Positions 1-55,364 of a DNA stretch of 64,000 bases are shown one piece after another (the first letter of the stretch is position 1; each line of letters opens with the position of its first letter). The position numbers were made by a program, and so were the translations under genes. The notes beneath the pieces are model-generated. The model was not told the DNA's origin and ran no database searches. It was given only the letters and a program-made list of their open reading frames with translations. Source of the DNA: a virus (lineage: Duplodnaviria > Caudoviricetes); IMG/VR virus record IMGVR_UViG_3300020577_010873, positions 9,989 through 73,988 of that record, one strand, 5' to 3'.

Positions 1-2
1 GC

Positions 3-140
3 GTTAAAAACATCGAATCCGCACAGGACAGGCTGAACAGTCTGGCGCAGTCGATCCGAGCGGTTGCCGACCTGCTCGGGACTATCAACGTGGTGGTTCC
101 GCCTCAACCGCCGTCCAAATCCAACGACGACTGCAAATGA
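3..140 (+). CDS. Hypothetical protein, 3' part (truncated by window edge)
   Basis: Open frame VKNIESAQDRLNSLAQSIRAVADLLGTINVVVPPQPPSKSNDDCK*; its TGA overlaps the next ATG (ATGA 137-140). Confidence 0.45.
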   Translation, partial: VKNIESAQDRLNSLAQSIRAVADLLGTINVVVPPQPPSKSNDDCK

Positions 141-289
141 GCATGACATTCACAGTCTGGAAAAAGGTCGACGTGGAAGTGGTGGCGGTGGACTACGTGA
201 TGCTCAAGATCGACAGCGGAGGAGTCATCACGAACTGGCCGAAGTCGCCCGACGTGTCGGCCTTCTTTCCGCGGGAGGATGAGCGATGA
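137..289 (+). CDS. Hypothetical protein (50 aa; not in supplied ORF track)
   Basis: MSMTFTVWKKVDVEVVAVDYVMLKIDSGGVITNWPKSPDVSAFFPREDER*; ATGA-coupled at both ends (137-140 and 286-289). Confidence 0.6.
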   Translation: MSMTFTVWKKVDVEVVAVDYVMLKIDSGGVITNWPKSPDVSAFFPREDER

Positions 290-642
290 GCGACATATCC
301 CACGTCCTGTTGTGGCTCGACGGCCTGGAATACAGGAAACGGAAATCCTACTTAGCTGCGTTGGAGCAATCTAAGCAGGATCTTCACGACACCGTGCAGT
401 CCGCGGTGAAGGTCATAGCCTTGGTCGCCGAAGTTTTGGTGGTTTCCGTAACCGAGGCACTCGACTTGCCCGCGCCCGGCGCAACCGGGGCATCCGCGAA
501 CGGAGCGCCGGCAGCCGACGGCCCAACGGGCGCCGGGTCGACGAACCGCCGGAAGAAAACCCGCCGCCACCCGATCCCGCGTGGGAAATCGGGGAAGTCA
601 CGGCCTGACTCGGGTTCACCATCGCCCGCCCCGTCGGGGTAG
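286..642 (+). CDS. Hypothetical protein overlapping the giant gene convergently
   Basis: ATGA-coupled start after GGAGG; protein-like N-half; the low-complexity C-half lies antisense to 413-642 of the giant ORF. Confidence 0.45.
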   Translation: MSDISHVLLWLDGLEYRKRKSYLAALEQSKQDLHDTVQSAVKVIALVAEVLVVSVTEALDLPAPGATGASANGAPAADGPTGAGSTNRRKKTRRHPIPRGKSGKSRPDSGSPSPAPSG

Positions 643-3600
643 GAGTGGACGCGAGTGCCTGCGCCGCCGCCGCAACAGCCTTGGTCTCACGCACGACCTC
701 CGGGTTCTCCAGAACTCCGGAGGTTTTCAGTTTGGCGTACTCGTCGGGCGTGACCGACCGACCGATGGCACGGGTGACGGGTTCGATCGAACTGACGGCC
801 GACTGGACGGCCCGTTGCCCTGCCCTGTCCGCCTCGTCCTTCGCCTCGACCGGGTTAGTAAAGCCTCCGCGCTCGATCACGCGGTCGTACGCCCGCTGGT
901 AGATCGCCTGGGCCACGCTGACGAGTCGTTTCTTTGCCGCCTCCCGGTCCTCCGGGTTGGCCTCGGAGAAGGCCAGGGCCGCGCCGAGAAGCTCCGGCTG
1001 GAGGGCCGCGTCCCGCTGGAAGGCGAAGGTGCTGGGGGCGGTTCGGCTCACCACCTGAACGCCCTGCGCGTTCGCGGCGTCACGGATGGCCGACGTGGTT
1101 TGCCGGCGTGGCGTGCCGTGGAAGAAGTTGGCGAGCACGCGACCGAGTTCACCGAACGATCCAAGGATGGACCGGGAGGCGTTGGCGGCGTCGACCTTGG
1201 CATCGACGTTCTTCCCGGTCATGACTTCCATGGTGGCGCGTGCGGCCAGAATTCCGGCCTCAGCGATCTGAAGAAGTATGCCAGGGCCGGGCGCCATGAA
1301 TCCGTTGCCGGTGGCGATGCGGTCGACGCCGAGCGACTTTGCCGGGGTCTGGAGCACGTCCCAGGCGATGGCTAGGATCGGTCGATTCCACCACGACTTG
1401 TCCTTCGGGGTGAGTTGCGGGGCGGAGTTGATCTCCCAGGCCGAGACGAACCTGGCGAGGAGGTTCTGGATCCAGTCCCACAGGTCGTCGTCATCGTCCG
1501 GGGGTGAGGCGATGGCCTCCGCCAGTTCCCGGGCGATGGTCGTCTGCACGTCGTTCATCGCCTGCCGGACGGCCACGCCGAAGTAATAGATTGCGAAGGA
1601 GGAGAGCAGCATGGAACCCGCGGTGATGGCGGTGTTCATCAGCTTGCGGGTGGCCGATCGGTCCACCGGCTGACGGAACATATCGACCGTCCGACTGACT
1701 TCGAAGGTCATCCAGCCGAGGAGGAGGCTCCGGAGGCCACGGGCGCTCGGACGGTTGGTCCGGGTCGAGGCGTTCCACTCGCTGAGCACGGCGTTTCCGA
1801 ACTTCGCTCCCAGAGGGTTAAGCCAGAACCGTCGATTGTCGATTTCCCCACGCGCCAAGGCAGCCATGAACTCCTCCGGGTGGACACCCGCCTCCCGCAG
1901 CATCTCGCGGAAGCCCGCGGAGTTCCCGATGTCGGCGTCGCCTATGGCCCACTCGCCCGTCACGTCGCCCGAGACTTCGATGTTCGCCTTGGCCAGCCGG
2001 TTGCGCCAGGAATTGGCGATGGCGGTCATGCGCCGGAGCATCAGGGGCACCAGGGTCGTCGCGGCCATCCGGTTGAGGTGCGCGTCGGTGCCGGTGGTTC
2101 CGACCTTGCTGCCGACCGTTGACTCCAGCACCTCGCCCACCTGACCGATGCGACGGATCGTGGCGTTGCCCACGCCCCCGCCCATGTGGGCCTTCAGCCC
2201 TTCGAGTTCGGCATAGCCGATGCGGCTACCCCACCCGATGGACTGCAACCACTCCATGACCTCCGGTGAAGTCCCAAGGCGAGGGAGATGGATGCCGACG
2301 GTCTTGCGCACCATCCAGTCGGTCATGTTGTAGACCGCGTAGGACAGGGAGTGGAGCGTCAGTCCGAAGGCTGCCAAGTTGGCCAGAGGAGCACCGATGA
2401 GAGGAGTCAGAATGCGCCGGGAACTCAATGGTCCACCCACCACGTTCGACAGGCCAACCCGTGGAGCGGCGAGCATGAACGGCATGAGCGCCCCAGTGAA
2501 CTTCTGGAGACCGCCCGGTGAGACCGAAGGACTCTGGATGTGCGCCAAGTCCCGCTCGATCGCCTCGGCCACCGCCCGCACCTTGGTTGCCGCGCTGTTC
2601 GCCACCTCCTGCGTGACCTCCACATCGGGTCTGCTGTTGGTGAACCACCGGGCGACCGCCCGAACCTCGTCGTTCATCCGAGGATCCTGAATGTTCTTCA
2701 GGATGTCGGCGATCGTCCGAAGGTGCTCCGCCGCGGCCTTGCCCGACCCCAACATCGAGACCTGGGAGACGTCGAGCACGTTGGACAGGGCGCCCCGCAT
2801 GTCGTTGACCGACCCGGATGCCCCGTACTCGTACATGGAACTCGGGTAGATCAGCTTCGCCGCCGGGCTGGTGAACTCGTTGGTGTCGTCCTCTCCGGTG
2901 TACGTCCCGACCCGGGTCATGGGCGTGGTGGAGTCCACGCTGGAGGCGCGGCGCGAGCGTGCGACGCGGGCGTAGACCATCAGTTCATCCGACAGGGCCT
3001 TGCGGATTGTCTCGTGCGGGCTGGCGATGCGGTTGTTCGCGTAGACCGCCAGGGCCGACACCGTGTCCTCGAAGGCCGACGCGATCGACGGGGGTGGAAC
3101 CTTGCCCGACCGGATGTCCCGGGCGTACTGCTGCTCCAATTCGAGTAGAATGGGGTTGCGCTCGAACGCCAAGTCCGACCGCAGGGAGTCGAGGATGTGG
3201 AACCGAACGATGTCGGGGAATGCCACCCAGGTCTGACTCATGTCCGGGTTCTTCGGGTCAGCCCCCAGGGCTGCCTCGTAGTTCGCCGCGATCTGGCGCT
3301 CGATCTCGCTGTTGACCTTGCGGGCCAGACCGATGTCGCCAGTCTCCGCCGCCGGACGGACCAGCCGGATGCCACGGAGGTTCTCGCGGATACCGCCGTA
3401 GTCCTCGGACTGCATGATCCGCTGGGCCTCGCGGAATAGGTCGCGGTCGAACCGGAGGAGCGTCACGAGCTCCCGGGTGATCGGCTTGTTCCGGAGGCTG
3501 GTGTTCAGCAGGGTGTCGCCCACCGCCACCTTCGAACCGTGCTCGCGGTATCGGTGCGCCACCTCGGCGTAGGCGGTGGCAAGGTCCGACTGGTGGTTGG

Positions 3601-6600
3601 CGTTGTACGGGTCAAGCCCGAGCGACTCGTACGCCGAATGCAGGAGCTTCATCCGGCGGGCGTGGTTCTTCGCCGCGATGGCGTCGAGCAGGCGACCCAA
3701 CCGGGCGTAGCCGGCGATGGACTCGGCGAACAGCCGGCCATGGATGCCCGGGATGAGGCGGGGCAGGATGGCTCGGATGGCGAACTCGGTCTTGGCCAGC
3801 CAGAGGTTGAAGATCTTGTACCGGCTGGTCTTCAACAGGTTGTCCGGAGTGGAGTATGCGTCGATCGCGGCGAGTGCCTTCTCTGCCCCAACGGCCAAGC
3901 CGCGGGTGATGTGAGGCGCGTTCGGAGGGTTGGTCGGGTTGGCCTGGGCCTCCTCCACCGCCTCCTGCGCCGCCTGCCGCCACTCGATGATCTTCTGGAT
4001 CACCTCGGCGGTGTACTCCTTGTTCGGACCGATGATGACGCTCTCCTGTTTCGTCCCGTCGGCTTTGATGAACTCCACGAAGTGCAGCCCGTGGGAGTTC
4101 GTGCGGTACACCATCTCCGCCGTGCCGATGCGGTCGCCCATCTCGCCCCCCGCGAGTTCGACCGCCCTGGCTGCCAGTTGGTGCAGCATCGCGATCGAAC
4201 GCTGCTCGATCTCCGCCTCCTGAATCTCCTTCTCCACCTCGGCCAATGTCGCGCTCGCCCCGCTGCGCTCAAGGCGAAGGCGTTCGAGCATGCCGCGGGC
4301 GGCAATGAATCCCTCCCGGGTCGCCCGCTCCTCCGCGTTCAGCGGTTGAGGGTGGGCCAACATACTCTCCCGCGCCGCCTCCACGCGCTCGATCACGTCC
4401 AGCATGCGCCGCTCCGACCGCGAATCCGCCTCGTCCGCCAGCATCAGCACGACGTTGCTGAATCCCATGTCGCGGTTGGCCATGTCCAGAATCTCGCGCA
4501 ACACGTCATCCGTGATGCTCGCCCCCTGCGCGACCGCCCGGATCATCGCCACGTTCCGACCGAAAGCCTCGTCCGATGCGACGGGGCGCTCCTGCGAGGG
4601 TGCGCCGGCCGGAAGTTCCCCGGCTGATGCGCTGCCCATGGCGGCGAAGATGTCGCCCGAGGTCATGGCCTCGGTGAACTCCGCGGCCACGCTGTTCGGT
4701 TGGGCTTGGCCAAGGAACACCGCCAGCCGGGAGATCGCGAGCTCGCGCTCCCGCACCTGTTGGGCAACCGACCGGGAGAACAGACCGCCCGAAGCCTCGG
4801 CATCCCCGGCGATGGAGGTGAGGAGTTCGTGGACACGCACGTCCACATCGCCCTGCTTCGACCGGAGTTCTCGGCGCCGCTGCTGGAGTTTCCGCAGGTT
4901 CTTCGCCAGCCGCTCGGACACCCGGTCCATCCGCTCCCGCATCGACCGCTGAATCTCCAGCGCGTGATGCCCGAACAGGCCGGACGCGACTTCGATGGGG
5001 GTGCGCAGGCTGGGCGACACCTCGTCCATCCCGCGGGGGATGGCACCCGACCGCTCGATCTCGTAGATCGTCTCGATCCACGGCTGGATCTCGGGCGCCG
5101 TGAGGGTCGCCCGCGCGGCCCTGGCTTCAGCCATGCCGTCGGTGGCCCGGCGGATGGAGTTGGCACGGTCGAACACCGCTGGGCGCTCGGTCTCGATGCG
5201 GTCAAGCCGTGCCTGCTGGCGGGCGATGCGGGACTTCAGGGCCTCGATCACGGACGACGATTGCTTGGTCAGGTCGCCCGAGCCGGTGCGCAGGTTCTCG
5301 TCGAGGAACCCCAGCGTCTCCCGGTTCTTGTCCAAGTTGTCCATCAGCGTGACCACCCGTCGCGCTTCAAGTTCGTCCAGCCACGTGTGGTGCGCCTGCA
5401 CGTCCGACTGGTTGTGCGGGACCTGCAATGCCTCCAGTTCGGCGATGAACTGCGGGGAGTCGATGTTCAGCCGAATGCGCCGACCGCGTCCGATGGAAGC
5501 CGATTCCCCCTGCTCCGCCAGTTCTCCCAGGCGGTTCTTGATGCGCTGCCACTGGTTGTCCTCGATCGCCCGGGAGATGACTTCGTTCGCCGCATCCCGC
5601 AGGGCGTACACGTCGGACCGCAGCCCCCACACCGCGGCGTTCACGTCCGCATGGACCTGCTCCTGGGAGTCGGTGGCGAAGGTGTAGGGCGTCTCGGGGA
5701 TGAAGTTCTCCGACTGCTTGGCGATTTGACGCGCCACCCGGGCGACCACACGGGCCGTCGGCGACTCGGCACGGAACATCCGGAGGAGCGAGCGCACGAG
5801 ACCGTAGCGGGTCGGTCCCTGCATGCGCTGTTCCACCAGCCGGCGGAGCACCGCCCGGCGACCAGAGGATTCACGCACGTCAACCTTCAGGGCGTCCGCC
5901 GCCCGCTTCAGCATCTCCGGGTCGACCTTGCGGATGTCCTCCCAGGCCGAATCCCAAAAGGCTTCGGGGATGAGGTTGATGCCAGCGTCAGCCAGGGCCC
6001 CGAGGAACAACGACCGGCGGGCGCCGCGAGTGCGGGGCAGCAGGCGGGGCACCACCACGATCTGACGGAAACCCGGGTCGTAGTAGACAGGCTCTTGAAC
6101 AAGATCGTCCGGTTCGTCGCGGAACACGATCTCGGGGGCGCTCTTGTACTCGTTGCGGAACCACTGAACATCCTGCGCCAGCAGCGTCTCTCGGTTCTCG
6201 GTGGGAATGATACTGAATTTCTGGCCATTGGCTTTCCGCTTGGCCTTAGGCTTCTTAGGTTCGGTGGATTCGGTTGTTTCGATCTCCAACTGCTTGCGCC
6301 ATTGCTCGGTCAGAGTCGAACGCTGGGCATCGGCTTCGGCAGTCTTGACCGTAACTCTTGTCTTTTTATACGTCTCAGCATCCCGCATCGGCATCAGCAC
6401 GTAGGCGAAGTCGGTTCCCAGGAACGACGCAGGGCCAAGCAATCCTTCGTCCGTTGCCACCCACAGGCTTTGATTCCCCATGCGAGCCGCCGCCTCAAGG
6501 CCATCGGCTAGGTAGTCGGCATTGAACGCTCCGATGATCTTCGACTTCTCCGTAACACCCGACTCGAACTCTCCAGAGTCCGGAACGATCGCCTTAACCC

Positions 6601-9600
6601 CGAAGTTTCCGTCGGAGTCCAAGAACAGTTGCATGGGTTTGGACGACGACTTCCTCTCCTCGCCAACCCAAAGTTGCAAAGCTCCACGCACCATCTTCAA
6701 AAGAACAGCCACGTCGGCCTTCGCACGCCACTCCGGGTCGGATGGTAGGACTTGGCGCCAGTTCGGGTACTGCGCTAGGTCGGACTTCGCGCCCTTGTCG
6801 TCCACTTCGAACTTCACTTGCTCGCCGGTTTGCGAGTTGAACTGGTGGACATCGGTGGTGCTTTCTCCCGCAGGGATGACAGCCATCTGACGACCATCGG
6901 TGGCGATGAGCAGCCCTCCGGCGTGCGCAACTCGGTTGACCACTTTGCGCGTCACATCGGTTGATGCGAACACGCCAACCACCTTGACCCGATCCGTGAA
7001 CGTCTTGAGCGCCGCTTCCTTTGGGGTCGATTTCTCGGATGTCGACGCCATCTTGGGTTCGGACGAACGCCCATCGCCTTTTGGAAACCGCTTCTTCACC
7101 GTCTCCAAGAACTTCCGCAGGGTCGGCTTGTCGTTTACCACGGTGAACACGCCGTCGCCAGGAACATCGAATGTGATGCCGGTTGGGCCTTGCCACTTGG
7201 CCTTCTTGATCTGATCCACCAGCAAAACCTGACGCTGGGAAAAGTCGAGTTCATTGGTCTTGCGTGGCACAACACCACCCGGACCTGGCTTTCCGTCAAC
7301 CGCCAAGTCAATCGTGGTGGGAGTCTTGTACTTCTCAAACAGGATTTCGATGCGACTTTGATACTTCTCCAGTGCGGATGCGTTTGCGGTCTCACGGTCG
7401 GACAAATTCTGCATCTTCCCAGCCTCAAGCTTTGCCGCGTCCCATTCTTTCTGCGCGGCTGCGATCTCGTCGGAGTCTGGAGAACCAACCGATTCCGGAG
7501 CCTCCTCCAGAGCCTTCGTCACGGCTTCAACAAGGTACTCTTTCTGAACCTTCAACGCCTTTGCCGTGCTGGTCTTTCGCTCGTTCGAAGCCTCGGGCTT
7601 TCCTTCGACTCGTTCTTCTTTTCGAAGCTCAGATTCACCCGGGACAGGTGTCGGAGGTACGACTTCTGGAGCCGCGTGTGCCGGAGGTGCCGGCTGTGGC
7701 TGTGGCGTCTCGATCGGTGCGGGCTCATGGGCCGCGAGCGGTGGTTGTTCAGGGGCAACATTTTGGGGTGCTGGTGTTGGTTCTGGTGTTGGCGCTGGAT
7801 ATGGCGTGGCCTCGACCGGAGGCAGGAGTTTCAGGCGATCCGATGCGAGCAGGTAGCGACGGCCAGAGGCATCATCGTCCACCGACACGCCCATGGCGTT
7901 CCGCTCAAGGACAACGCCGGTTCGGCGCACTCCGTCATCGTCCCACTCGACGCGATCACCTTTGGATATGTCCTTGGTGGGAGTTGGTGCGGGCTGCGGG
8001 GTGCTTTCGGCCTTGGCCTTCTTCTGGCGGAGATGGGGAGGTGCGACGCGCTTGGGCTTGCGCCCTTTTGACTCCACGGAATCGGTAGCAGTTGTTCCTC
8101 CCTTGTCCTTGGTAGGTTCATGGGTTTCGGTCTGCCCGAGTTCGGCGTCGAGTTCGGCCTGGAGGTCAGCCTGCTCCTTCTTCTTCTGGATCTTCGCCTC
8201 CTCCTTCGGGGTGGGCGTGGGCTCCGGATGGGCCGGCGCTTCCGCCTTGGGTTCCGAAGGGGATTCGGGAGGCTTCGGAACGGGTTCGGAAGGCGTCTTC
8301 GTTTCCGACTTCGTTTCAACAGAAGGAGCTTTATTCGAAGCAGTTGCCTGTGATTCGGGCGGCTTCGTTTCCTGAGTTGGTTCGGCAACGGGAGGCGCTG
8401 GCTTTGGCGGTCCGAGCGACTTGGCATTATCTCGCGTCTCTGCCGTGCCGGAGAAGTGGGCTGGGGAGGCTCGGCGAGGCAGACCAGTGTCATCGTATGC
8501 CGGCTTCAGGAGCGGGCTATCGGATTCAAGGTCAACGTACCAGACGTTGCCACCATTCATCAGGGCATACCCTTCGGCGTAGTCGCGCGAAGCAGTCCAA
8601 TCTCCTGACGCCTCTTTGAACCCGCCTCCGTGGTAGACGCGGACCTTGCCTTCAGCGATCGGAGGTTCGTCGCTTCTGGGGCGGTTCACTCCACCATCGA
8701 ACGGTCGCTCGTCTTTCTGCGGAGTCGCTGGTGCGGGCGTGGATGCCTCGACCGTCGGTGCCACCGGAGGCTTAGGAGACTCGGCGGTGGCTGGGGCTGC
8801 TTTCCTGTTTTGGATCCAACGCTCGAACTCCGACGTCATGTCCATGCTTGGAATCCCAAGCTTGGAACGAACCGCAAGGACGATCGGCTTCTTATCCTGG
8901 GGTGTTGCGTAACCGGGTACTACTATCGCGTTCGCAATCTCAAGAGCGGTTTTCCTTTGAGCTGCAAGCGACTCAATCTCGGGAACCACTCCGGCCTTTT
9001 GAGCAACGTCGAACAGGCGTTTAATTTCATCATCAAGCCACCCAGGAAGATTCGATGGATGTGCGGATTGTGCGGGAATAGTTTCCGCACTTTGCGGAGA
9101 CGCGGCCGGTGCGGCAGGAGCAGGTGTCGAAGCTGTCCCCGGCGCTGTGCCGGCCGCGTCAAGAACCGGAGGAACCGGCTGTGTTACTTCTTGGTCTTGG
9201 ACTTGGGACTGCACTTCTTGGCCATTTGGGATCACCCCCTTATTTCGAACGATACTCCGTGCCAGGATACGGCCAGCCACGGGGGCCGGTGCCGGACCGA
9301 GCTTCGGGAACCATTCGGAAAGCTTTGCGCGGAGTCGGTCGACCGGCTCACGCCACCACTTCTTTTTCTCGTACAGATGGGCGATGTACTCCTCGGGGAT
9401 GTCGCGCCCGTTGTACCGGCGGGCGAGTCCCCACACGTCATCCCGCATCTCCTGCGACCGCCCGATTTCCTGCGCGGCGAACTCGCTGATCTTCGCCTGA
9501 CCCTCGGGAGTGTCCGCCGCTTGGTGAAGTCCCTCGTGCCGGGCGACCTCGCGGAGCCGCTGCGGATCACGGATGGACCCGCGGAAGAACACGACCTTCT

Positions 9601-11368
9601 TCGACTGCTGGTCGTACACACCTTCGATCTCTTGGTTGAGCCGTCCATCCGCATCCGTCGGCTGGTCGGTCGCGCGGCCGGTGAGGTTGTCCCGGTATCC
9701 CTTGCCCGGTCGGAGTTCGTACTGGTCGGGCGTGAAGTTCTCGGACTCGATGGCTTGGCGCCATGGCGCGTCAATCTGATCGCCCATCACAGCGCGGGCA
9801 CGCCGAAGCTGTGGCACGCCTTGGACTGTCGGAACATCTCCCTTCGCGATGTCCTTTCCGAAGGCCATCCCGAATCCCTTGTTTACCTCGGGCGCCCGCT
9901 CGATCGCCTGCTGAAGACGCTCGACCACCGCACTATCCGGACCGAACTGCTCGATCGCCTGCTGAAGAACCTGTTGGGCATGCTGAGGATCTTCGAGTGC
10001 GCGGTTGATCTCCGCCGCCTTGAGCACCTCCGCCTCGGTTTGCTGCGCGATCTCGGCAGCCGTTGCGGTGCCCTTGGAGTATTCGAGAACTTTCTGGAGA
10101 CGCAGCTTGTTGGCAAGGAGCATGGTTTGGTCGCCGCGTTGTGCCGCGACTTCCATCTTCATGCGGGCGCTCACCGCCTCGGGGATCGCCTTCTCGTCCT
10201 CCGGTCGAAGCGCCCCCTCTTTGCGAGCCGCGTCCAGTGACTCCTGCCACTGGTCGACCACACCCTTCGTAACCTCCGCTCGGAGGTTGTGCTTCGCCGC
10301 ACGGATCTCCAGCGGAGTGAACCCCACGCCTCCGGTGAAACCACCGAGGAAGCTCATGAACAGATCGGTCACGAGGTCCGATACGTTGGTCATCTGCGTC
10401 GGGTCGAACAGCATCGCCGCAGATACGTGCTGAGCCAGAGTGCTCGCGATCTCCTCCAGCCCTTCGGAGAATCCGGTGCGACCCAGCCGCTTCAGGAGAG
10501 ACATTCCGCCTTCCTTGATCGCCTCCTTCAGTGCGTCGCGCGGAGCAACGTCGAAGAACTTCCGCAGCCCATCTGGAAGGAACGGCATCTTCCCGAGGAA
10601 CTTCGAAGTGCGAGCCGCGGCGCTACCCAGGTATTCCGACCCAGCCTCGGCCAGAGTGGAGTTCCATGCGTGGAGATATGCCTTCTCTGGAGACGCTCCC
10701 TTGGAACGCGCCTCCTCATACGCCGGAGCGAACGTGGAGAGCGACGTGGCAAACAAGACGGGAAGTCCACCCACCGTGGCCGGAAGGGATGTGACAATTG
10801 AACCGCCGGAACTACCAAGAAAGTCGACAGTCTGCTTCACCCCATCCGGCATTTCCGCCAATCGGTCGTCGTAATATTTGCGCTGATCTTCCGTTCCAGC
10901 CTTCGTCAGTTTCCCGTACGGTCCTTGCGTGAACCTTTCGTAGTTCTCCGCGGGATTCAGTGAAGGGGTTTTCCCGTCCATCAAATCCAAGAGGGGTTGA
11001 AGGCCGGGTAAGATGCCGAGCGATGACCGTCCGGCGTTTGCCACAGTGCTCGAAACCGCATCAGCCGCACGATTCACCAACGCCGCGGGTAGATCAGGCA
11101 CCGCACCCAACGCGGTTGTGACATTGTTCAACGTGTCGAACCCCGACTTCTGAGCGTCGGTCAGCGGGAAATCCACCGGAGGCTCTGGCTGCGGCGGAGG
11201 TCCAATCAAGTCGCCCGCCCCTTGGACGAACACCGTGTTGAGCTTCGGCATCTGCGGAAGGGTCGCCTGCCGGTGAAGTTCCGCCGCCGCTTGAACGATC
11301 TGGTCGTCCCCCATGTCATCGGGGAAGTCGACCGGACCAACGCCTGGGACGTCGATGCGTTGTGGCAT
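413..11368 (-). CDS. Giant polyvalent internal (ejected) virion protein, 3651 aa: zincin HExxH, ART-like, SH3-like and beta-clamp-like domains, long helical C-terminal part
   Basis: Last gene of the virion arm. RHEGLH at 9524-9538; VYHGGG...WTASRDYAEGYA ART-like at ~8470-8660; clamp motifs at 6380-7000; Pro/Ala/Glu linkers; Arg-rich C-terminus. Confidence 0.85.
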   Translation of the reverse strand: MPQRIDVPGVGPVDFPDDMGDDQIVQAAAELHRQATLPQMPKLNTVFVQGAGDLIGPPPQPEPPVDFPLTDAQKSGFDTLNNVTTALGAVPDLPAALVNRAADAVSSTVANAGRSSLGILPGLQPLLDLMDGKTPSLNPAENYERFTQGPYGKLTKAGTEDQRKYYDDRLAEMPDGVKQTVDFLGSSGGSIVTSLPATVGGLPVLFATSLSTFAPAYEEARSKGASPEKAYLHAWNSTLAEAGSEYLGSAAARTSKFLGKMPFLPDGLRKFFDVAPRDALKEAIKEGGMSLLKRLGRTGFSEGLEEIASTLAQHVSAAMLFDPTQMTNVSDLVTDLFMSFLGGFTGGVGFTPLEIRAAKHNLRAEVTKGVVDQWQESLDAARKEGALRPEDEKAIPEAVSARMKMEVAAQRGDQTMLLANKLRLQKVLEYSKGTATAAEIAQQTEAEVLKAAEINRALEDPQHAQQVLQQAIEQFGPDSAVVERLQQAIERAPEVNKGFGMAFGKDIAKGDVPTVQGVPQLRRARAVMGDQIDAPWRQAIESENFTPDQYELRPGKGYRDNLTGRATDQPTDADGRLNQEIEGVYDQQSKKVVFFRGSIRDPQRLREVARHEGLHQAADTPEGQAKISEFAAQEIGRSQEMRDDVWGLARRYNGRDIPEEYIAHLYEKKKWWREPVDRLRAKLSEWFPKLGPAPAPVAGRILARSIVRNKGVIPNGQEVQSQVQDQEVTQPVPPVLDAAGTAPGTASTPAPAAPAASPQSAETIPAQSAHPSNLPGWLDDEIKRLFDVAQKAGVVPEIESLAAQRKTALEIANAIVVPGYATPQDKKPIVLAVRSKLGIPSMDMTSEFERWIQNRKAAPATAESPKPPVAPTVEASTPAPATPQKDERPFDGGVNRPRSDEPPIAEGKVRVYHGGGFKEASGDWTASRDYAEGYALMNGGNVWYVDLESDSPLLKPAYDDTGLPRRASPAHFSGTAETRDNAKSLGPPKPAPPVAEPTQETKPPESQATASNKAPSVETKSETKTPSEPVPKPPESPSEPKAEAPAHPEPTPTPKEEAKIQKKKEQADLQAELDAELGQTETHEPTKDKGGTTATDSVESKGRKPKRVAPPHLRQKKAKAESTPQPAPTPTKDISKGDRVEWDDDGVRRTGVVLERNAMGVSVDDDASGRRYLLASDRLKLLPPVEATPYPAPTPEPTPAPQNVAPEQPPLAAHEPAPIETPQPQPAPPAHAAPEVVPPTPVPGESELRKEERVEGKPEASNERKTSTAKALKVQKEYLVEAVTKALEEAPESVGSPDSDEIAAAQKEWDAAKLEAGKMQNLSDRETANASALEKYQSRIEILFEKYKTPTTIDLAVDGKPGPGGVVPRKTNELDFSQRQVLLVDQIKKAKWQGPTGITFDVPGDGVFTVVNDKPTLRKFLETVKKRFPKGDGRSSEPKMASTSEKSTPKEAALKTFTDRVKVVGVFASTDVTRKVVNRVAHAGGLLIATDGRQMAVIPAGESTTDVHQFNSQTGEQVKFEVDDKGAKSDLAQYPNWRQVLPSDPEWRAKADVAVLLKMVRGALQLWVGEERKSSSKPMQLFLDSDGNFGVKAIVPDSGEFESGVTEKSKIIGAFNADYLADGLEAAARMGNQSLWVATDEGLLGPASFLGTDFAYVLMPMRDAETYKKTRVTVKTAEADAQRSTLTEQWRKQLEIETTESTEPKKPKAKRKANGQKFSIIPTENRETLLAQDVQWFRNEYKSAPEIVFRDEPDDLVQEPVYYDPGFRQIVVVPRLLPRTRGARRSLFLGALADAGINLIPEAFWDSAWEDIRKVDPEMLKRAADALKVDVRESSGRRAVLRRLVEQRMQGPTRYGLVRSLLRMFRAESPTARVVARVARQIAKQSENFIPETPYTFATDSQEQVHADVNAAVWGLRSDVYALRDAANEVISRAIEDNQWQRIKNRLGELAEQGESASIGRGRRIRLNIDSPQFIAELEALQVPHNQSDVQAHHTWLDELEARRVVTLMDNLDKNRETLGFLDENLRTGSGDLTKQSSSVIEALKSRIARQQARLDRIETERPAVFDRANSIRRATDGMAEARAARATLTAPEIQPWIETIYEIERSGAIPRGMDEVSPSLRTPIEVASGLFGHHALEIQRSMRERMDRVSERLAKNLRKLQQRRRELRSKQGDVDVRVHELLTSIAGDAEASGGLFSRSVAQQVRERELAISRLAVFLGQAQPNSVAAEFTEAMTSGDIFAAMGSASAGELPAGAPSQERPVASDEAFGRNVAMIRAVAQGASITDDVLREILDMANRDMGFSNVVLMLADEADSRSERRMLDVIERVEAARESMLAHPQPLNAEERATREGFIAARGMLERLRLERSGASATLAEVEKEIQEAEIEQRSIAMLHQLAARAVELAGGEMGDRIGTAEMVYRTNSHGLHFVEFIKADGTKQESVIIGPNKEYTAEVIQKIIEWRQAAQEAVEEAQANPTNPPNAPHITRGLAVGAEKALAAIDAYSTPDNLLKTSRYKIFNLWLAKTEFAIRAILPRLIPGIHGRLFAESIAGYARLGRLLDAIAAKNHARRMKLLHSAYESLGLDPYNANHQSDLATAYAEVAHRYREHGSKVAVGDTLLNTSLRNKPITRELVTLLRFDRDLFREAQRIMQSEDYGGIRENLRGIRLVRPAAETGDIGLARKVNSEIERQIAANYEAALGADPKNPDMSQTWVAFPDIVRFHILDSLRSDLAFERNPILLELEQQYARDIRSGKVPPPSIASAFEDTVSALAVYANNRIASPHETIRKALSDELMVYARVARSRRASSVDSTTPMTRVGTYTGEDDTNEFTSPAAKLIYPSSMYEYGASGSVNDMRGALSNVLDVSQVSMLGSGKAAAEHLRTIADILKNIQDPRMNDEVRAVARWFTNSRPDVEVTQEVANSAATKVRAVAEAIERDLAHIQSPSVSPGGLQKFTGALMPFMLAAPRVGLSNVVGGPLSSRRILTPLIGAPLANLAAFGLTLHSLSYAVYNMTDWMVRKTVGIHLPRLGTSPEVMEWLQSIGWGSRIGYAELEGLKAHMGGGVGNATIRRIGQVGEVLESTVGSKVGTTGTDAHLNRMAATTLVPLMLRRMTAIANSWRNRLAKANIEVSGDVTGEWAIGDADIGNSAGFREMLREAGVHPEEFMAALARGEIDNRRFWLNPLGAKFGNAVLSEWNASTRTNRPSARGLRSLLLGWMTFEVSRTVDMFRQPVDRSATRKLMNTAITAGSMLLSSFAIYYFGVAVRQAMNDVQTTIARELAEAIASPPDDDDDLWDWIQNLLARFVSAWEINSAPQLTPKDKSWWNRPILAIAWDVLQTPAKSLGVDRIATGNGFMAPGPGILLQIAEAGILAARATMEVMTGKNVDAKVDAANASRSILGSFGELGRVLANFFHGTPRRQTTSAIRDAANAQGVQVVSRTAPSTFAFQRDAALQPELLGAALAFSEANPEDREAAKKRLVSVAQAIYQRAYDRVIERGGFTNPVEAKDEADRAGQRAVQSAVSSIEPVTRAIGRSVTPDEYAKLKTSGVLENPEVVRETKAVAAAAQALASTPTPTGRAMVNPSQAVTSPISHAGSGGGGFSSGGSSTRRPLGRRLPALRSRMPRLRRARASRVPRLRKPPKLRRPRL

Positions 11369-16131: not shown

Positions 16132-17199
16132 TTACGAGAACGTGAGTCGGATGGCCCCACCCGCTCCAGCGGGTGCCTGGGATGTGTTGCTGTTAATGCC
16201 GTCCGTTCCGGAGCCAGCCGAATACCCGGAGGCCGAGACGCCCACACCACCGACACCGGCAACCGAAGTCGTTCCCGCCGTGCCTGGATTCCCGATTGAG
16301 GAAGCGGCATCGACCGATCCGACGCCAAGGTTGTTGGCTCCCGAAACGGAAGGACTGGCGCCGGCCGTTCCTGGCACGCTGTAGGACTTCGCGATACCAC
16401 CGTTCCCGCCGGGATTGGCGAAGGCATTCACCGCCGAACCGTGCGTGGTCTTGTAGAGCACGCTCGCGCTACCCGGTGCGCCGGGATCCAGAATGAACTT
16501 GTCGCCCACGTGAATCGGGATCCCGGTGATCTTCAGGTACGCACCCGAAGCGCCACCGCCACCGAAGGCCAGCGTGTTGGGAGCCACGATCCATCCGCTG
16601 TGGCTGTTGTTTCCCCCCGTTCCACCCGGGCCCCAAATCTCAGCCGTCATGGTGCCATCGGCGGCGACAACGTACTCCCCTGGAGTCACGGTGTTGGTGT
16701 AGGTGTAGGGGGTAGTGCCCGAACCCGACGCCATCTTACCCGATGCCACCGCCGAGAACCCGCTGTTGCTCAGCGTATTGTGCGCCTTGACCGCGTAGTA
16801 GTATACCGTGCCTGCCACCACGTCATCGTCGACAAACTCCGTGGCGTCGATGGCTGATGCGACGACCGCCATGTCCGACGGGTTGCTCGTCCCTCCCCGG
16901 TACACGCTGTAGCTGTTGGCCGAACTCACGCTGGACCACGTGACCTTCACGTCGGTCGTCCGGCTGGAGGTGGCGGCGACGTTCGAAGGGGCGCTCAGGC
17001 TGTTGCTGCCCGTGCCCGTTCCTCCTCCGCTCTCGTTCTTGAACGCGTCGGACAACGTGCCGTCCGCGTTATACATCCACGTCTTCTCCTGGCACACGAG
17101 GTCCAGCAGGGTGCGTAGGGACGTGAGCTGATCGCACGGGGATGCGGTGGGCGAAAGCTTGATGGCGCAGAACTGGGAGGGAGTGACGGGCGATCCCAT
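16132..17199 (-). CDS. Fibronectin type III + glycine-rich domain virion protein
   Basis: APSNVAAT...VKVTWSSVSSANSYSVYR...FVDDDVVAGTVYYYAVKAHN (FN3), then a GPGGTGG/GGGGASGAY glycine-rich domain. Confidence 0.8.
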   Translation of the reverse strand: MGSPVTPSQFCAIKLSPTASPCDQLTSLRTLLDLVCQEKTWMYNADGTLSDAFKNESGGGTGTGSNSLSAPSNVAATSSRTTDVKVTWSSVSSANSYSVYRGGTSNPSDMAVVASAIDATEFVDDDVVAGTVYYYAVKAHNTLSNSGFSAVASGKMASGSGTTPYTYTNTVTPGEYVVAADGTMTAEIWGPGGTGGNNSHSGWIVAPNTLAFGGGGASGAYLKITGIPIHVGDKFILDPGAPGSASVLYKTTHGSAVNAFANPGGNGGIAKSYSVPGTAGASPSVSGANNLGVGSVDAASSIGNPGTAGTTSVAGVGGVGVSASGYSAGSGTDGINSNTSQAPAGAGGAIRLTFS

Positions 17200-17222
17200 G
17201 GGCGAGAGTCAACGCCCACTCG

Positions 17223-17256
17223 GTTGCAAAAGCAATACGCGCGTTGCATTTGCAAG
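17223..17256. promoter_or_regulatory. Tandem imperfect palindromes (GTTGCAAAAGCAAT, GTTGCATTTGCAAG) in the divergent FN3/portal spacer
   Basis: 17223-17236 and 17243-17256, 20 bp apart; same consensus GTTGCAWWTGCAAC as 24603 and 39183. Confidence 0.5.
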
Positions 17257-17278
17257 CAGAAAGTGCTTGCCTGTTCCC

Positions 17279-19591
17279 GTGATTTCGAAACGCGCCATCA
17301 AGGCTTTCCGGCTGGATGCCGAGTCCCTCCGCCACCTGTTCGAACCCAAGCCGGGAGAGACGGCATGGACGCCCCATCCGGCGGTCAAACGGCTGGTCGA
17401 CCGATGGAAGGCCCGCGCACAGCAAGGGCGCGACGAGAACCTCCGGCAGTACCGTCTCTACGCCGCGCTCGATCACTGCTGGGAGTCGGGATTCCGGCAG
17501 ACGACTCAGACCCTCATGTCGATGGTCAGGGACCTTCAGGACTACGGTCCGAAGGGACAGGGCGGGGTTGACGCGGTGGCCATCGCCGAAAGCTGGGGCC
17601 TCACCCATCTCGTCTCCGCCACGCACGATCCGAAGACGGGGGTCACCAGCAAGACCCTGGACTTCCCGCTCTTGCAGGAGGTGATTCTTGGGCTGCCACG
17701 GGCGTTCACGATGATGCGCGTCGCCCGCATTATGACCGAGCGATTGCAGGTCCCGCTCATGAAGTACGAACCGGCGTGGACGACCAAGATCAACCAGTTC
17801 CGAACCGAGGTCGGGACGCAGCGGATCGAGCAGGGCAACCGCGAGTTCGGCTACAGCGCCACCTACTGCGAGGCCACCCAGGGGGCGGCGAAGTACGGCC
17901 AGCAACTCATGTTCATCTCCGAGCAGTGGTACGAGATGAAGGACTACGTCGACCTTCAGGACGAGCAGGGGAACATCACGATCAAGGGCGTGGTCGGTAA
18001 AGAGGGCGTGCGCTACGTCCTTCCCCACCCCGGGCGCTCCTGCATCGACTCCGATTACGCGGCGTACACGATCAACAACGACGTGGGCCCGCGGTGGGCG
18101 AACTACTGGCGGACGACCAAGGTGGGGAGCGCCAAGGCCGCGGGGTACTGGAACAAGGAACGCATCTCGCGCTCCGACCGATTCGGCGACCCGCAGTGGG
18201 TGGCGTACTTCCAGGCCACCGGAAGCTGCCGGATGGCCACCAACTTCGACCAGACGCGCTTCAGCCAACTCGATCGCGAACGCAACCTCGACCGCGGCAC
18301 CACCTACTACTCGGCGCACGAGGACGATCAGCCGGTGTGGGAGACGCACCACTTCGAACGGTTCAACCCGAAGAACGAGTTCACGGACGTCAAGGACGGG
18401 TGCGCCATCACGGACGAGAATGGAAAGCCCGTGGACCTTCCGGACTGCGACGTGTGGTTCCGCGTCGTCCTGGCCTCGGACGACACTCCGCTGTACGTCA
18501 CGGCCCTCCCGTCCTGCCCGGTCGTCTGCTGGCCATGGGAGCCGGTGGGCGCGAACTCCGTGCAATCGAGCATCCTCCTCGAACTCATGCCCTACGGAGA
18601 CCACGGGTCGAACATAATGACCCAAAGTCTGGTCGGCCTGGACCAGAACGGAGCGAACTTCACGATCTTCAACCAAGACGTGGGGCTGGACTACGCCAAG
18701 GTGGAGAAGGAGATCATCGGATCGCGGGCCAAGCGGGCGCGCAAACTCTGCATCCTCGGTGCGTCGTTCAAGAACTTGGCCCACCGCGACGTCGACCTCG
18801 ACAGCGTGTTCAAGTCCTACCGCTTCCCGCAGTTGGACGTGCAGGGGCACCTCGTGATGCTCGGTCAGTTGATCGGGATCATGAAGCAAGTGGCTGGAAT
18901 GTCGGATCAGGAGGTCGGCGGGTCGGCCTCGCACGAGCAGTCGGCGGAGGAGATTCGAACGATCCACACCGCGACGGGCCACCGGGCGGAGTACGTGGCG
19001 GCGTGGCTGGACTTCGCGTTCGAGGCGTGGAAGCGCCAGCTTTGGACCTATTATGCCGCTTATGGGACACTGCCGGCCTTCGCCAGCCTTGGGCCGGAGT
19101 TCCTGGCGACCATCCAGCAACTCGCGGAGCAAAAGCTGGTGGACGTGGTGAGCGATCCGGACGAGGACGGGAACACCATCGTCTCCGTCGATTTCAGCCG
19201 GTGCCGCGTCGAGCAGTTCGTGGCGCAGCGCGACGGACCGAACCGCATCCCGTGGGTGACGATCGGAGGTCAGATGTTGAACTTCCTTCAGGTGTTCATG
19301 GCGGCGCCGGTCTCCCAGGCGATTCCGCCCGAGTCGATCATCGAGATGGTCAACGGCGCACTGGATGCCCTCCAGTTCCCGAGGTCCTTCCGGGTGCCCG
19401 TTGGACCGCAGGAGGCCACGGGTGGTGTCAGCCCGGCGACGCAGCAGTTCGTGTTGGAGAAGCTGAAGGAGTTGGTTCCTCAGATCAAAGCGTTCGTGGA
19501 TCAGGAGGTGAAGAAGGGCATGGGGTCCGTACAGCCTCCTCCTCCGTCCGCACCGAATGAGGTGAACTACAACTTCGGGCAGGCTGCATGA
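17279..19591 (+). CDS. Portal protein (P22-like)
   Basis: ~770 aa; WPWEPVGANSVQSSILLELMPYGDHGSNIMTQ and KQVAGMSDQEVGGSASHEQSAEEI patterns of P22-type portals. Start set at GTG 17279 to avoid overlap with the divergent gene (uncertain). Confidence 0.7.
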   Translation: MISKRAIKAFRLDAESLRHLFEPKPGETAWTPHPAVKRLVDRWKARAQQGRDENLRQYRLYAALDHCWESGFRQTTQTLMSMVRDLQDYGPKGQGGVDAVAIAESWGLTHLVSATHDPKTGVTSKTLDFPLLQEVILGLPRAFTMMRVARIMTERLQVPLMKYEPAWTTKINQFRTEVGTQRIEQGNREFGYSATYCEATQGAAKYGQQLMFISEQWYEMKDYVDLQDEQGNITIKGVVGKEGVRYVLPHPGRSCIDSDYAAYTINNDVGPRWANYWRTTKVGSAKAAGYWNKERISRSDRFGDPQWVAYFQATGSCRMATNFDQTRFSQLDRERNLDRGTTYYSAHEDDQPVWETHHFERFNPKNEFTDVKDGCAITDENGKPVDLPDCDVWFRVVLASDDTPLYVTALPSCPVVCWPWEPVGANSVQSSILLELMPYGDHGSNIMTQSLVGLDQNGANFTIFNQDVGLDYAKVEKEIIGSRAKRARKLCILGASFKNLAHRDVDLDSVFKSYRFPQLDVQGHLVMLGQLIGIMKQVAGMSDQEVGGSASHEQSAEEIRTIHTATGHRAEYVAAWLDFAFEAWKRQLWTYYAAYGTLPAFASLGPEFLATIQQLAEQKLVDVVSDPDEDGNTIVSVDFSRCRVEQFVAQRDGPNRIPWVTIGGQMLNFLQVFMAAPVSQAIPPESIIEMVNGALDALQFPRSFRVPVGPQEATGGVSPATQQFVLEKLKELVPQIKAFVDQEVKKGMGSVQPPPPSAPNEVNYNFGQAA

Positions 19592-20967
19592 ACCGCAAAA
19601 CCTGCTGGATCACGTTCCAGTTCCAGACCACCGAGGACTGGAGAATCCACGAACTCGCGCTGTCCGTGCTCTGCGCGGCCCACCACTACCACGTGCGGGT
19701 GGTGACGAACCTGGGTGAGAGGATTCGCCAGATCGGCCTGCCCTGCACCGTGGTCGACCGTACGTTCGTCCCAGCCATGCCATGGAGCGTCCACAAGCTG
19801 CGGACGTACGCCGAGGCTCCGTCGGGAGAGCCGTTCCTCCACATCGACTCCGACGTGTTCCTGTTCGATCCGCTGCCCGAGTGGCTGTTCGAGAAGTGGC
19901 TGTTCGCCCAGTCGCCGGAGGGGAAGGAGCACTACCTGTTGCCCATGCCGGCGGAGTGGGCGGCGAAGTACGAACCGAAGCCGCATTCGGCGTGGAACAT
20001 GGGGATCTTCGGTGGCAACCCCGGCACGGTGCGCGAGTACGCCCGGTTCGCCATGGAGTCGGCCGCGCTTTGGCCGACGGCAAAGCCCACGTACGTCGAG
20101 CAGTTGGCGCTCGGGAAGTTCTCCCAGGTCTACAGGTTCGCCGTGGCCTCACCGCTGATCGACGGGAAGCTGCACGGGTACACCCACCTGATGGACGACT
20201 CGCGGAACACCGACGTCCAGCACCGCATCCGCCTGCGCCTCTGCACCGACTATCCGGCGGTGGCCGAGCGGTTGGGCATCCGCCGGCCACTGCTGTCCAT
20301 CTTGGTCAGTCGCGGACGATTCAGCCGGTTGCTCCGGACTATCGATACTTGGATTGAGACTCGCACGTTCGCCGACATGCTGGTCGTGTTGGATGATGAT
20401 GATCCCGTGGCAGATCAAGTCTCGCTTGAGCTATCTCAGTACAAGGCTCCGATTCGCGTGGAGAAACGCCCGCGCGTGGGGTTCGCCCAGGCGTTCGACC
20501 AAGCGTGCCGCCGCCACTCCCGGGGGTACGACGTGATCGGCATGGCCGCGAACGACCTCGTCTTCTGCACCCGCGGCTGGGACAAGCGGTTCTACGACGA
20601 GCTCCTCCACCGGAACTTCATGGGCGTCGTCTACGGTCGGGACGGGCGGTGGGACAAGGATCTGGCGACCCACCCGTACATCGGGAGCCGGCTGTTCGAG
20701 GCGGCAGGAACGGTCGTCACCCCGGAGCAGCGTCACCTTTGGGTCGACAACAACCTGATGGAATTGGGGAAGCGCACGAACCTCATCTACCTCGACGACG
20801 TGCTGATCCGCCACGACCACTACGGGGTGATGCCCAACCTCACGGACGACGCTTACCTCGCGTGCAACAGCCGGGAGAACTACGACCACGACCGCGCGTG
20901 CCACGAGCGTTACGCGCAAACGGTCAGGGAGATGAAGCTATGGCCCGACTGCAAGACCTGTGGGTGA
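19588..20967 (+). CDS. Two-domain glycosyltransferase (two GT-A/DxD-type domains)
   Basis: N-domain PFLHIDSDVFLFDP; C-domain GT2-like MLVVLDDDDP...IGMAANDLVF...HLWVDN...IRHDHY; ATGA-coupled to the portal. Confidence 0.75.
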   Translation: MNRKTCWITFQFQTTEDWRIHELALSVLCAAHHYHVRVVTNLGERIRQIGLPCTVVDRTFVPAMPWSVHKLRTYAEAPSGEPFLHIDSDVFLFDPLPEWLFEKWLFAQSPEGKEHYLLPMPAEWAAKYEPKPHSAWNMGIFGGNPGTVREYARFAMESAALWPTAKPTYVEQLALGKFSQVYRFAVASPLIDGKLHGYTHLMDDSRNTDVQHRIRLRLCTDYPAVAERLGIRRPLLSILVSRGRFSRLLRTIDTWIETRTFADMLVVLDDDDPVADQVSLELSQYKAPIRVEKRPRVGFAQAFDQACRRHSRGYDVIGMAANDLVFCTRGWDKRFYDELLHRNFMGVVYGRDGRWDKDLATHPYIGSRLFEAAGTVVTPEQRHLWVDNNLMELGKRTNLIYLDDVLIRHDHYGVMPNLTDDAYLACNSRENYDHDRACHERYAQTVREMKLWPDCKTCG

Positions 20968-21122: not shown

Positions 21123-21197
21123 TGGAAGCGGGTGCTGGAATCGAACCAGCGACTTGCGCCTTATGAGGGCGCCCATCTGCCACTGATGTAACCCGCC
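21123..21197 (-). tRNA. tRNA with CAT anticodon (probably elongator Met; Ile2 not excluded)
   Basis: Full cloverleaf: GGCGGGT/ACCCGCT acceptor, GCGCC-CTCATAA-GGCGC anticodon arm, GGTTCGATTCC T-arm, encoded CCA. Lacks initiator features. Confidence 0.9.
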
Positions 21198-55288: not shown

Positions 55289-55364
55289 GCACGCGTAGCT
55301 CAGTTGGTAGAGCGTCGGTCTTCCAAACCGACTGTCGCGGGTTCGATTCCCGCCGCGTGCTCCA
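55289..55364 (+). tRNA. tRNA-Gly(TCC)
   Basis: GCACGCG/CGCGTGC acceptor, U73, CCA; TCGGT-CTTCCAA-ACCGA anticodon arm; GGTTCGATTCC. Confidence 0.95.

Follow-up and report, generated by a model that had tools for sequence, protein, structure and literature searches.

The pocket of the bacterial beta clamp (DnaN) is a hub that organises polymerases, repair enzymes and regulators, and it is also an antibiotic target. A phage genome segment of 64,000 nucleotides, referred to below as the window (the whole stretch of DNA analysed), raises the question of what such a pocket would do inside a giant phage protein. The first-pass annotation of this DNA placed a clamp-like domain within a giant internal virion protein and proposed that it recruits or sequesters host clamp partners from the moment of infection. 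The question can be addressed with a recombinant domain of 210 residues and standard peptides.

Gene and genomic setting

The domain is part of the product of a giant ORF (P0001) with a third-position GC of 0.77 (Table 1). A protein of 3724 aa, 98% identical to P0001, was found in another sample. The gene is situated downstream of those for TerL, a tailspike-like protein and a virion structural protein, and the terminal position in the late operon is kept by its relatives. Judging by this gene order only, P0001 may be a virion or injected protein. No strong transmembrane segment was revealed by a hydropathy scan, and no Pfam polyvalent domain was matched. An HEGLH motif with no family match is located at aa 611–615, and in the family searches the clamp cassette was the sole recognisable domain of P0001.

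The source phage is temperate. Its record contains genes for an integrase, a replication initiator, a DnaB-like helicase and RecT/exonuclease. Neither a DNA polymerase of family A, B or C nor DnaN was found in this record, which is 69% complete, and the Pfam DnaN models did not match the genome. If the polymerase is absent, replication would depend on host Pol III; as the record is just 69% complete, however, a polymerase gene may sit in the missing part.

Table 1. Features of the giant gene and of its clamp cassette (Ec, Escherichia coli beta clamp)
Feature	Amino acids	Window positions	Strand	Basis
Giant ORF, P0001	3651 aa in total	413..11368	-	Uninterrupted ORF; closes the late (virion) operon
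Cassette start, helix KALKVQKEYLVEAVTKALEEAPE	1270-1292	7493..7561	-	Matches consensus KxxKxQKxxLLxxxDxAIxxAP
Alpha-beta-beta-alpha VPGDG mini-module	1376-1430	7079..7243	-	Conservation, model secondary structure
Low-confidence linker, mini-module to clamp-like module	1431-1452	7013..7078	-	pLDDT 54-65
Clamp-like module, homologue of DnaN domains II and III	1453-1663	6380..7012	-	Superposition, hhalign, PHROG 947
Reduced domain II	1453-1532	6773..7012	-	hhalign deletion, DSSP, residue mapping
Peptide FASTDVTRK	1467-1475	6944-6970	-	Peptide located
Peptide LIATDGRQMA	1487-1496		-	Peptide located
Domain II/III linker QYPNWRQVLP	1533-1542	6743..6772	-	Corresponds to Ec F241-P249 in alignment; peptide located
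Complete domain III	1543-1663	6380..6742	-	Two beta-alpha-beta-beta-beta halves in model
Peptide IIGAFNADYLADGL	1611-1624		-	Peptide located
Peptide FAYVLMPMR	1654-1662	6383-6409	-	Peptide located

Homology to DnaN

The five peptides on which the first-pass annotation had based its clamp assignment are all present in P0001. The assignment itself was confirmed, since profile, sequence and structure searches agree far beyond chance that the domain is derived from DnaN. PHROG 947, "DNA polymerase processivity factor", matched the module with E = 1.6e-9, and a phmmer search of 1.84 billion proteins matched genuine three-domain DnaN with E = 3e-7 to 1e-4. The hhalign comparison of the 131-member family with DnaN gave a probability of 100% and E = 3.8e-47, with E. 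coli residues 132–366 covered. The Pfam DnaN models remain below threshold both on P0001 and on the clamp-like domain alone; among the relatives, PF02768 is passed by 8 of 27 in one set and by 3 of 12 in another. The clamp-like module is homologous to domains II and III of DnaN.

Predicted fold and lost elements

The AlphaFold model (pLDDT 86.9) shows the fold of DnaN domains II and III and superposes on E. coli beta residues 131–366 with Z = 17.9. In VIA-align, model residues 79–289 were matched to the same part of beta with an rmsd of 2.6–3.0 Å over 184–190 residues. A Foldseek search returned more than 480 matches at E <= 0.001; the top rows listed were all beta clamps, with E about 1e-10 against the PDB.

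Domain II is reduced. It retains helix alpha1, the STDxTR motif (R1474, equivalent to E. coli R152) and the ATDGR hairpin, in which T1490, G1492 and R1493 correspond to T172, G174 and H175. Helix alpha2 (about 199–210 in E. coli) is missing, so that DSSP finds one helix rather than two in the modelled domain, and the deletion is visible in the hhalign alignment. In the linker to domain III, P1535 and V1540 are equivalent to P242 and V247. Domain III is complete and includes FNADYL (N1616 and Y1619, E. coli N320 and Y323) and VLMPMR (M1659, P1660, M1661 and R1662, E. coli M362–R365). The module does not contain three tandem clamp domains of two beta-alpha-beta-beta-beta halves each, domain I being missing, and the earlier estimate of about two of the three proves correct.

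The doubt expressed earlier that such a protein could form a ring is also supported. The columns equivalent to the dimer-interface residues I272 and L273 vary, with A (26%) and L (19%) as the most frequent residues, and the opposite side of the interface, which belongs to domain I, is absent together with helix alpha2 of domain II. It is unlikely that the module encircles DNA.

Compared with DnaN (PF00712/PF02767/PF02768; 2POL, 3Q4J), the module has a homologous sequence and the same fold throughout domains II and III, and shares the pocket motifs STDxTR, ATDGR, (F/Y)PxxxxV-P, FNxxY and MPMR. DnaN, however, is a free replication protein of 366 aa with domain I, whereas the module sits inside a protein of 3651 aa from the virion block, lacks domain I and the second helix of domain II, and does not conserve the ring-interface residues. 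In addition, the DnaN chain ends at the rim of the pocket, whereas that of P0001 runs on past MPMR and might cover the pocket.

Conservation of the pocket

The residues that form subsites I and II of the pocket for clamp-binding motifs were taken from a published list (PMC11139829). As the first-pass annotation had stated, the ATDG, (Y/F)PxxxxV-P and MPMR segments coincide with the residues of this list, and they are preferentially conserved across the family. By sequence mapping, P0001 has R1474, T1490, G1492, R1493, P1535, V1540, N1616, Y1619, V1657, M1659, P1660, M1661 and R1662. At the family level, R152 is represented by R in 98% of sequences, T172 by T in 97%, G174 by G in 98% and H175 by R in 85%. 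The position of P242 is P in 98%, that of V247 is V or I in 94% and that of Y323 is Y or F in 91%; M362, P363 and R365 are M in 95%, P in 88% and R in 73%, respectively. P0001 deviates from the R and L that predominate in the family and in DnaN by having Q1494 and M1495 at these positions.

The pocket columns contain 3.08 bits versus 1.58 bits elsewhere (Mann–Whitney p = 4e-8), part of this difference being due to ascertainment bias and fold constraint, because the homologs were found through the pocket motifs, whose positions rank highest in conservation within DnaN too. Nine of the 25 most conserved columns of the family belong to the pocket. Among the columns conserved in DnaN, those of the pocket are retained at 0.78, versus 0.48 for the others. 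Residue mapping thus indicates that the hydrophobic pocket between domains II and III, of the type that accommodates QL[S/D]LF peptides, is retained.

Composition and spread of the cassette

The part of P0001 that is common to other giant proteins is limited to aa about 1250–1700, and the BLAST coverage by these proteins starts near aa 1250. The module belongs to a mobile cassette of ~400 aa, which comprises a helix, the VPGDG mini-module, a linker and the clamp-like module. The helix matches a family consensus (Table 1). The mini-module has the consensus ITIxVPGDGxFxIxNxKxxLxxFxxxAxKxFP, whose residues V, P, G, D, G, N, F, F and P hardly vary, and in 102 of the 132 homologs it precedes the clamp-like module by 37–56 aa. 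The linker between them is variable and rich in Pro, Ser and Lys in the homologs. Folded alone, the mini-module reached a pLDDT of 76.8, and no PDB fold matched it at Z above 2.9. Its derivation from the second half of DnaN domain I has little support: the hhalign match is weak (P = 0.0047, probability 7.5%), and the structural alignments start at model residue 79.

A search for the domain in other giant phage proteins, suggested in the first-pass annotation, was productive. The cassette is present in more than 120 mosaic giants, several of them with polyvalent domains, and the module, its motifs nearly invariant, persists in more than 120 cluster representatives (50% identity or less). By tblastn, the module had no match in 50,697 GenBank phage records or in 72,556 plasmids, and searches of viral and genome contigs, for which the module, the cassette alignment and TerL served as queries, gave no related loci.

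The same two-domain beta-like fold (Foldseek E = 1.5e-11) occurs in short phage "Pol III beta-like processivity factors", such as A0A6G9L9F1 of Bacillus phage vB_BcM_Sam46 (217 aa), a protein of Xanthomonas phage Suba (222 aa) and phrog_6615. These proteins are free-standing and are named for replication functions, whereas the module is a cassette in a giant late protein and not a separate protein of about 210–250 aa from a replication module. We know of no functional test of the short factors. Three short relatives (P0080, P0113 and P0114) are on short contigs whose gene contexts give no information. In the phylogenetic tree, the short and solo beta-like forms occupy the basal branches of the cut-down clade.

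Possible function of the module

The reading we prefer, tentatively, is that the module is a reduced, non-ring descendant of DnaN, which is delivered with the virion and whose pocket tethers a host protein with a clamp-binding motif near the phage DNA or the giant protein. The giant protein would be delivered into the cell along with the phage DNA. The pocket could then hold a motif-bearing partner of the host, such as Pol III alpha, clamp loader delta, Pol I, ligase or a repair factor, and keep it beside the entering phage genome or the other parts of the giant protein. Acting as a local adaptor, the module might help to start or protect phage DNA metabolism. It is the delivery into the cell, the peptide binding and the identity of the partner that we infer here.

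A more specific form of this proposal appears possible but rather unlikely. According to it, a virion-delivered adaptor uses its ring-less pocket to capture host Pol III, the clamp loader or further enzymes with the motif beside the incoming genome, and the cassette descends from a free phage clamp that lost, step by step, everything but the pocket.

On this more specific reading, phages without a polymerase would bring into the cell a site at which the host replisome can dock. A widespread phage module reduced to the pocket, within proteins that may enter along with the DNA, would represent a new viral route to the host replication network. The module would also provide a compact, monomeric natural scaffold with which the recognition of clamp-binding motifs can be studied or exploited.

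The same conservation of the pocket would be expected of a decoy or inhibitor, whose free pocket sequesters clamp partners (e.g., clamp loader delta) or absorbs clamp-targeting toxins, so that host replication or repair is shut down or a defence is blunted. Phage proteins that attack the clamp or the clamp loader are known, which counts in favour of such an activity. Furthermore, delta is reported to bind a monomeric beta variant about 50 times tighter than the dimer (PMC11139829). We nevertheless consider a decoy improbable. A non-catalytic domain delivered in few copies would hardly titrate abundant host proteins and is better suited to local tethering; in addition, the phage seems to need the host Pol III machinery, as no polymerase was found. 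By this argument, sequestration is the weaker half of the recruit-or-sequester proposal of the first-pass annotation.

The location of the gene within the virion block agrees with a structural or assembly role as well, in which the pocket binds a phage peptide or a peptide of its own chain and organises cargo inside the capsid or within the ejection complex, no host protein being involved. The frequent pairing with the VPGDG mini-module fits this role, since the mini-module could be an internal ligand or partner. However, P0001 contains no canonical clamp-binding motif, such motifs are not enriched in 122 giants, and in the other ORFs of the phage only loose hexamer-like words were found. Ligands like those of DnaN would also account more readily for the conserved ligand-contact residues of DnaN, and a purely structural role has a low probability in our estimation.

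Slightly less probable still is that the module continues to act as a DNA clamp or holder, with several copies (e.g., a trimer of two-domain units on the model of PCNA or gp45), or a hybrid that includes host beta, encircling or gripping the phage DNA and keeping the giant protein on it. Such a role is suggested by the annotation of two-domain beta-like phage proteins of 211–246 aa as processivity factors (BFVD matches; phrog_6615), by one short relative that adjoins a family A polymerase gene and by the DNA binding that a monomeric beta variant still displays (PMC11139829). Against it, the two domains have lost one of their four inner helices, the equivalents of the DnaN ring interface are not conserved and long linkers flank the module on both sides within the giant chain. 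Nor do the inner helices have an increased net charge, a further point against gripping, which by itself does not discriminate between the readings. Finally, domain loss, the reduced domain II and the sub-threshold Pfam scores on P0001 would suit a now functionless relic of a clamp gene once captured, but this is very improbable, because a relic would not have kept near-invariant motifs in so many representatives or a confidently predicted fold.

Relation to polyvalent and ejection proteins

P0001 resembles the ejection proteins of podoviruses (T7 gp14–gp16, P22 gp7/gp20/gp16) in its size and in closing the virion block behind three mid-sized genes. No sequence or family match was found, and the likeness is one of gene order only.

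Polyvalent proteins of phages and conjugative elements are likewise giant mosaics encoded with virion genes (Iyer, Burroughs, Anand, de Souza, Aravind 2017, PMC5512222), and the words clamp, DnaN, PCNA and processivity do not occur in the text of that paper. More widely, the literature searched contained no account of a polyvalent, ejection or internal virion protein with a clamp domain. By gene order, P0001 shares with polyvalent proteins the property of being encoded among virion genes. Several unrelated effector domains, another of their properties, are clearly present in other giants with the cassette, which carry InPase, LPD1, LPD5, LPD38, ART-PolyVal, Kinase-PolyVal, MutS_I and PBECR3. 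If the tethering function holds, a non-enzymatic "hub mimic" would be added to the known contents of polyvalent proteins. As a separate observation, and as a lead only, the language-model neighbours of the C-terminal half of P0001 include the LPD39, LPD38 and LPD1 clusters.

Genomic Context of the Giant Gene

The source IMG/VR record comprises 73,988 bases, with an estimated completeness of 69%. In the direction of transcription, the minus-strand genes are arranged as integrase, TerL, a 610-aa protein, a tailspike-like protein of 1321 aa, a virion structural protein, three mid-sized ORFs and the giant ORF P0001. Relatives share this arrangement: the giant gene closes the series, and RecT and the early genes come after it. 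A second sample encodes a 3724-aa protein with 98% identity to P0001, which marks the ORF as a genuine, conserved gene. The late operon is broken by two opposite-strand genes (GC at third positions 0.86–0.88): one is an 814-aa ORF without a family, the other a 459-aa methyltransferase/glycosyltransferase-like ORF.

The replication set of the record is of a temperate, lambda-like type and consists of an integrase, a replication initiator, a DnaB-like helicase, RecT with a PDDEXK exonuclease, HNH endonucleases and a sigma-70 region 4 protein. Apart from the integrase, these lie among the ORFs of window 41000–61500. No DNA polymerase of family A, B or C and no DnaN (the bacterial beta sliding clamp) was detected in this 74-kb, 69%-complete record, so the phage would replicate via host Pol III.

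Features of the window and of the giant protein P0001
Feature	P0001 residues	Window position	Strand
Giant ORF P0001, uninterrupted	1–3651	413–11368	minus
Extremely basic C-terminal tail	last 45	413–550	minus
Clamp-like module	1453–1663	6380–7012	minus
Alpha-beta-beta-alpha VPGDG mini-module	1376–1430	7079–7243	minus
Small segment GDRVEW...LLASDRLKLL	1137–1182	7823–7960	minus
HEGLH (HExxH) motif, N-terminal region	611–615	9524–9538	minus
Opposite-strand genes		17147–20967	plus
Adjoining tRNA-Met		21123–21197	minus
Integrase		39758–40819	minus
Second tRNA (Gly)		55289–55364	

Clamp Homology

The first-pass annotation had likened part of the giant protein to DnaN domains II–III. All five peptides it cited were found at P0001 aa 1467–1662 (window 6383–6970, minus strand), and four independent routes, PHROG, phmmer, hhalign and AlphaFold2/Foldseek/VIA-align, bear out that the segment is clamp-like in sequence and predicted structure. 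The isolated segment matched PHROG 947 "DNA polymerase processivity factor" (aa 1533–1665, E = 1.6e-9), and its PDB sequence matches were beta clamps only (best E = 0.002). A phmmer search of 1.84 billion representatives with a 241-aa segment returned 147 matches, mostly proteins of 1200–5700 aa. The same list includes 357–367-aa proteins (E = 3e-7 to 1e-4); the three scanned with Pfam (P0089, P0095 and P0107) each contain all three DnaN domains.

For hhalign, the domain was excised from 131 non-DnaN matches and aligned, and the DnaN alignment included E. coli DnaN from NC_000913. The two profiles matched with a probability of 100% (E = 3.8e-47), covering E. coli residues 132–366. The AlphaFold2 model of aa 1375–1680, built on an alignment of 54 rows (pLDDT 86.9, pTM 0.81), gave > 480 Foldseek matches in the PDB at E <= 0.001; the top rows listed are all beta clamps. 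VIA-align paired model residues 79–289 (P0001 aa 1453–1663) with E. coli beta 131–366 (Z = 17.9, rmsd 2.6–3.0 Å, 184–190 residues).

Retained and Lost Elements

Domain III is complete in the model, with two beta-alpha-beta-beta-beta halves, and the first half of domain II is retained (helix alpha1, STDxTR strand and ATDGR hairpin). In both the hhalign alignment and the model, the second helix of domain II (E. coli about 199–210) is deleted, with short strands in its place. Domain I is absent from the clamp-like module, and the family columns equivalent to ring-interface I272/L273 are variable (A 26% and L 19% are commonest). These losses agree with the initial description of about two of three clamp domains and a doubtful ring. 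In DnaN, the chain stops at the pocket rim, whereas in P0001 it runs on past it.

The residues of the pocket for clamp-binding motifs, listed in E. coli numbering in review PMC11139829, are the family's most conserved part. Among the homologs, which were found through the pocket hallmark motifs themselves, a selection that bears on all these figures, conservation is as follows: R152 = R 98%, T172 = T 97%, G174 = G 98%, H175 = R 85%, P242 = P 98%, V247 = V/I 94%, N320 = N 68%, Y323 = Y/F 91%, V360 = V/I/L 95%, M362 = M 95%, P363 = P 88% and R365 = R 73%. Information content is 3.08 bits in pocket columns versus 1.58 bits elsewhere (Mann–Whitney p = 4e-8), and the pocket contributes 9 of the 25 best-conserved columns. 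DnaN-conserved columns are retained at 0.78 in the pocket versus 0.48 for others, the DnaN set being small.

Cassette, Polyvalent Proteins and Origin

BLAST comparison of P0001 with the other matches showed a common region at aa ~1250–1700 only; the remaining ~3200 residues are not common. Judged by sequence, the unit is a cassette rather than a single domain. In 102/132 homologs, the mini-module (consensus ITIxVPGDGxFxIxNxKxxLxxFxxxAxKxFP) precedes the clamp-like module by 37–56 residues. A conserved helix, KxxKxQKxxLLxxxDxAIxxAP, is located further upstream. Folded alone, the mini-module had no PDB match. A weak profile match (P = 0.0047, probability 7.5%) pairs it with the latter half of domain I of DnaN and ends at the "FP" inter-domain linker, which hints at possible collinearity with a degenerate full-length clamp.

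Among 27 shorter family members scanned, 8 passed the Pfam DNA_pol3_beta_3 threshold and others contain LPD38, PBECR3 or ART-PolyVal. The 12 very large members include InPase (3), LPD5 (3), LPD1 (3) and ART-PolyVal (2), with MutS_I, Kinase-PolyVal and 2H phosphoesterase in one each and methyltransferases likewise in single members. Such companions are hallmarks of polyvalent proteins (Iyer et al. 2017). One BFVD match is named [quoted passage not shown]. Outside the cassette, the Pfam scan of P0001 identified no polyvalent domain; for the C-terminal half of P0001, the language-model neighbours are clusters with LPD domains, a lead only. Iyer et al. (2017) never mention a clamp, and in the literature searched on polyvalent, ejection and internal virion proteins, no domain derived from a clamp is described. 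The find is a DnaN-derived pocket module inside polyvalent-type proteins.

Phages also hold free-standing two-domain beta-like proteins of 211–246 aa (BFVD matches; phrog_6615). The short relative P0026 (203 aa; true start uncertain owing to an N run in the gene just upstream) adjoins a family A polymerase fragment; its neighbourhood (at L008:1407-2626) is of replication type and also includes a ResIII/DEAD helicase. In a FastTree phylogeny of 140 sequences, the cut-down forms all group in a single clade (support 0.74) separate from full DnaN, with short Pfam-passing forms basal and giants nested (weak support, 0.48). This tree would fit one reduction event, after which the reduced form was captured into giants.

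Putative Function

The retained pocket and lost ring elements argue for a putative peptide-docking module; a DNA-encircling clamp is disfavored on the same grounds. We tentatively favor local tethering, in which the pocket would hold a host enzyme with a clamp-binding motif beside the incoming DNA, or might instead tether it to the giant protein itself. Bulk sequestration of clamp partners by the module appears unlikely, since the module is non-catalytic and the protein probably occurs in only a few copies.

Still less probable is a role as an internal assembly ligand site. No canonical clamp-binding motif occurs in P0001, and 122 giants (from P0002–P0147) show no enrichment for one. Hexameric clamp-binding-like words Q[LIVM]x[LM]x[FL] number 9 in these giants, below the 26.9 ± 5.2 obtained after composition-only shuffling. 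This depletion may be an artefact or self-binding avoidance. A residual clamp or DNA holder is improbable, given that ring elements were lost while the pocket was kept, and a functionless relic of a captured clamp is very unlikely.

The HEGLH motif of P0001, whose region has no Pfam or PHROG match, possibly marks a candidate zincin-like peptidase of the kind processing polyvalent proteins. The C-terminal tail, preceded by a Gly/Ser run, contains R or K at 18/45 positions and could bind DNA. The segment at aa 1137–1182 is flanked by long Pro/Ala/Glu/Lys-rich linkers and is conserved in the closest relatives (consensus of alignment A7).
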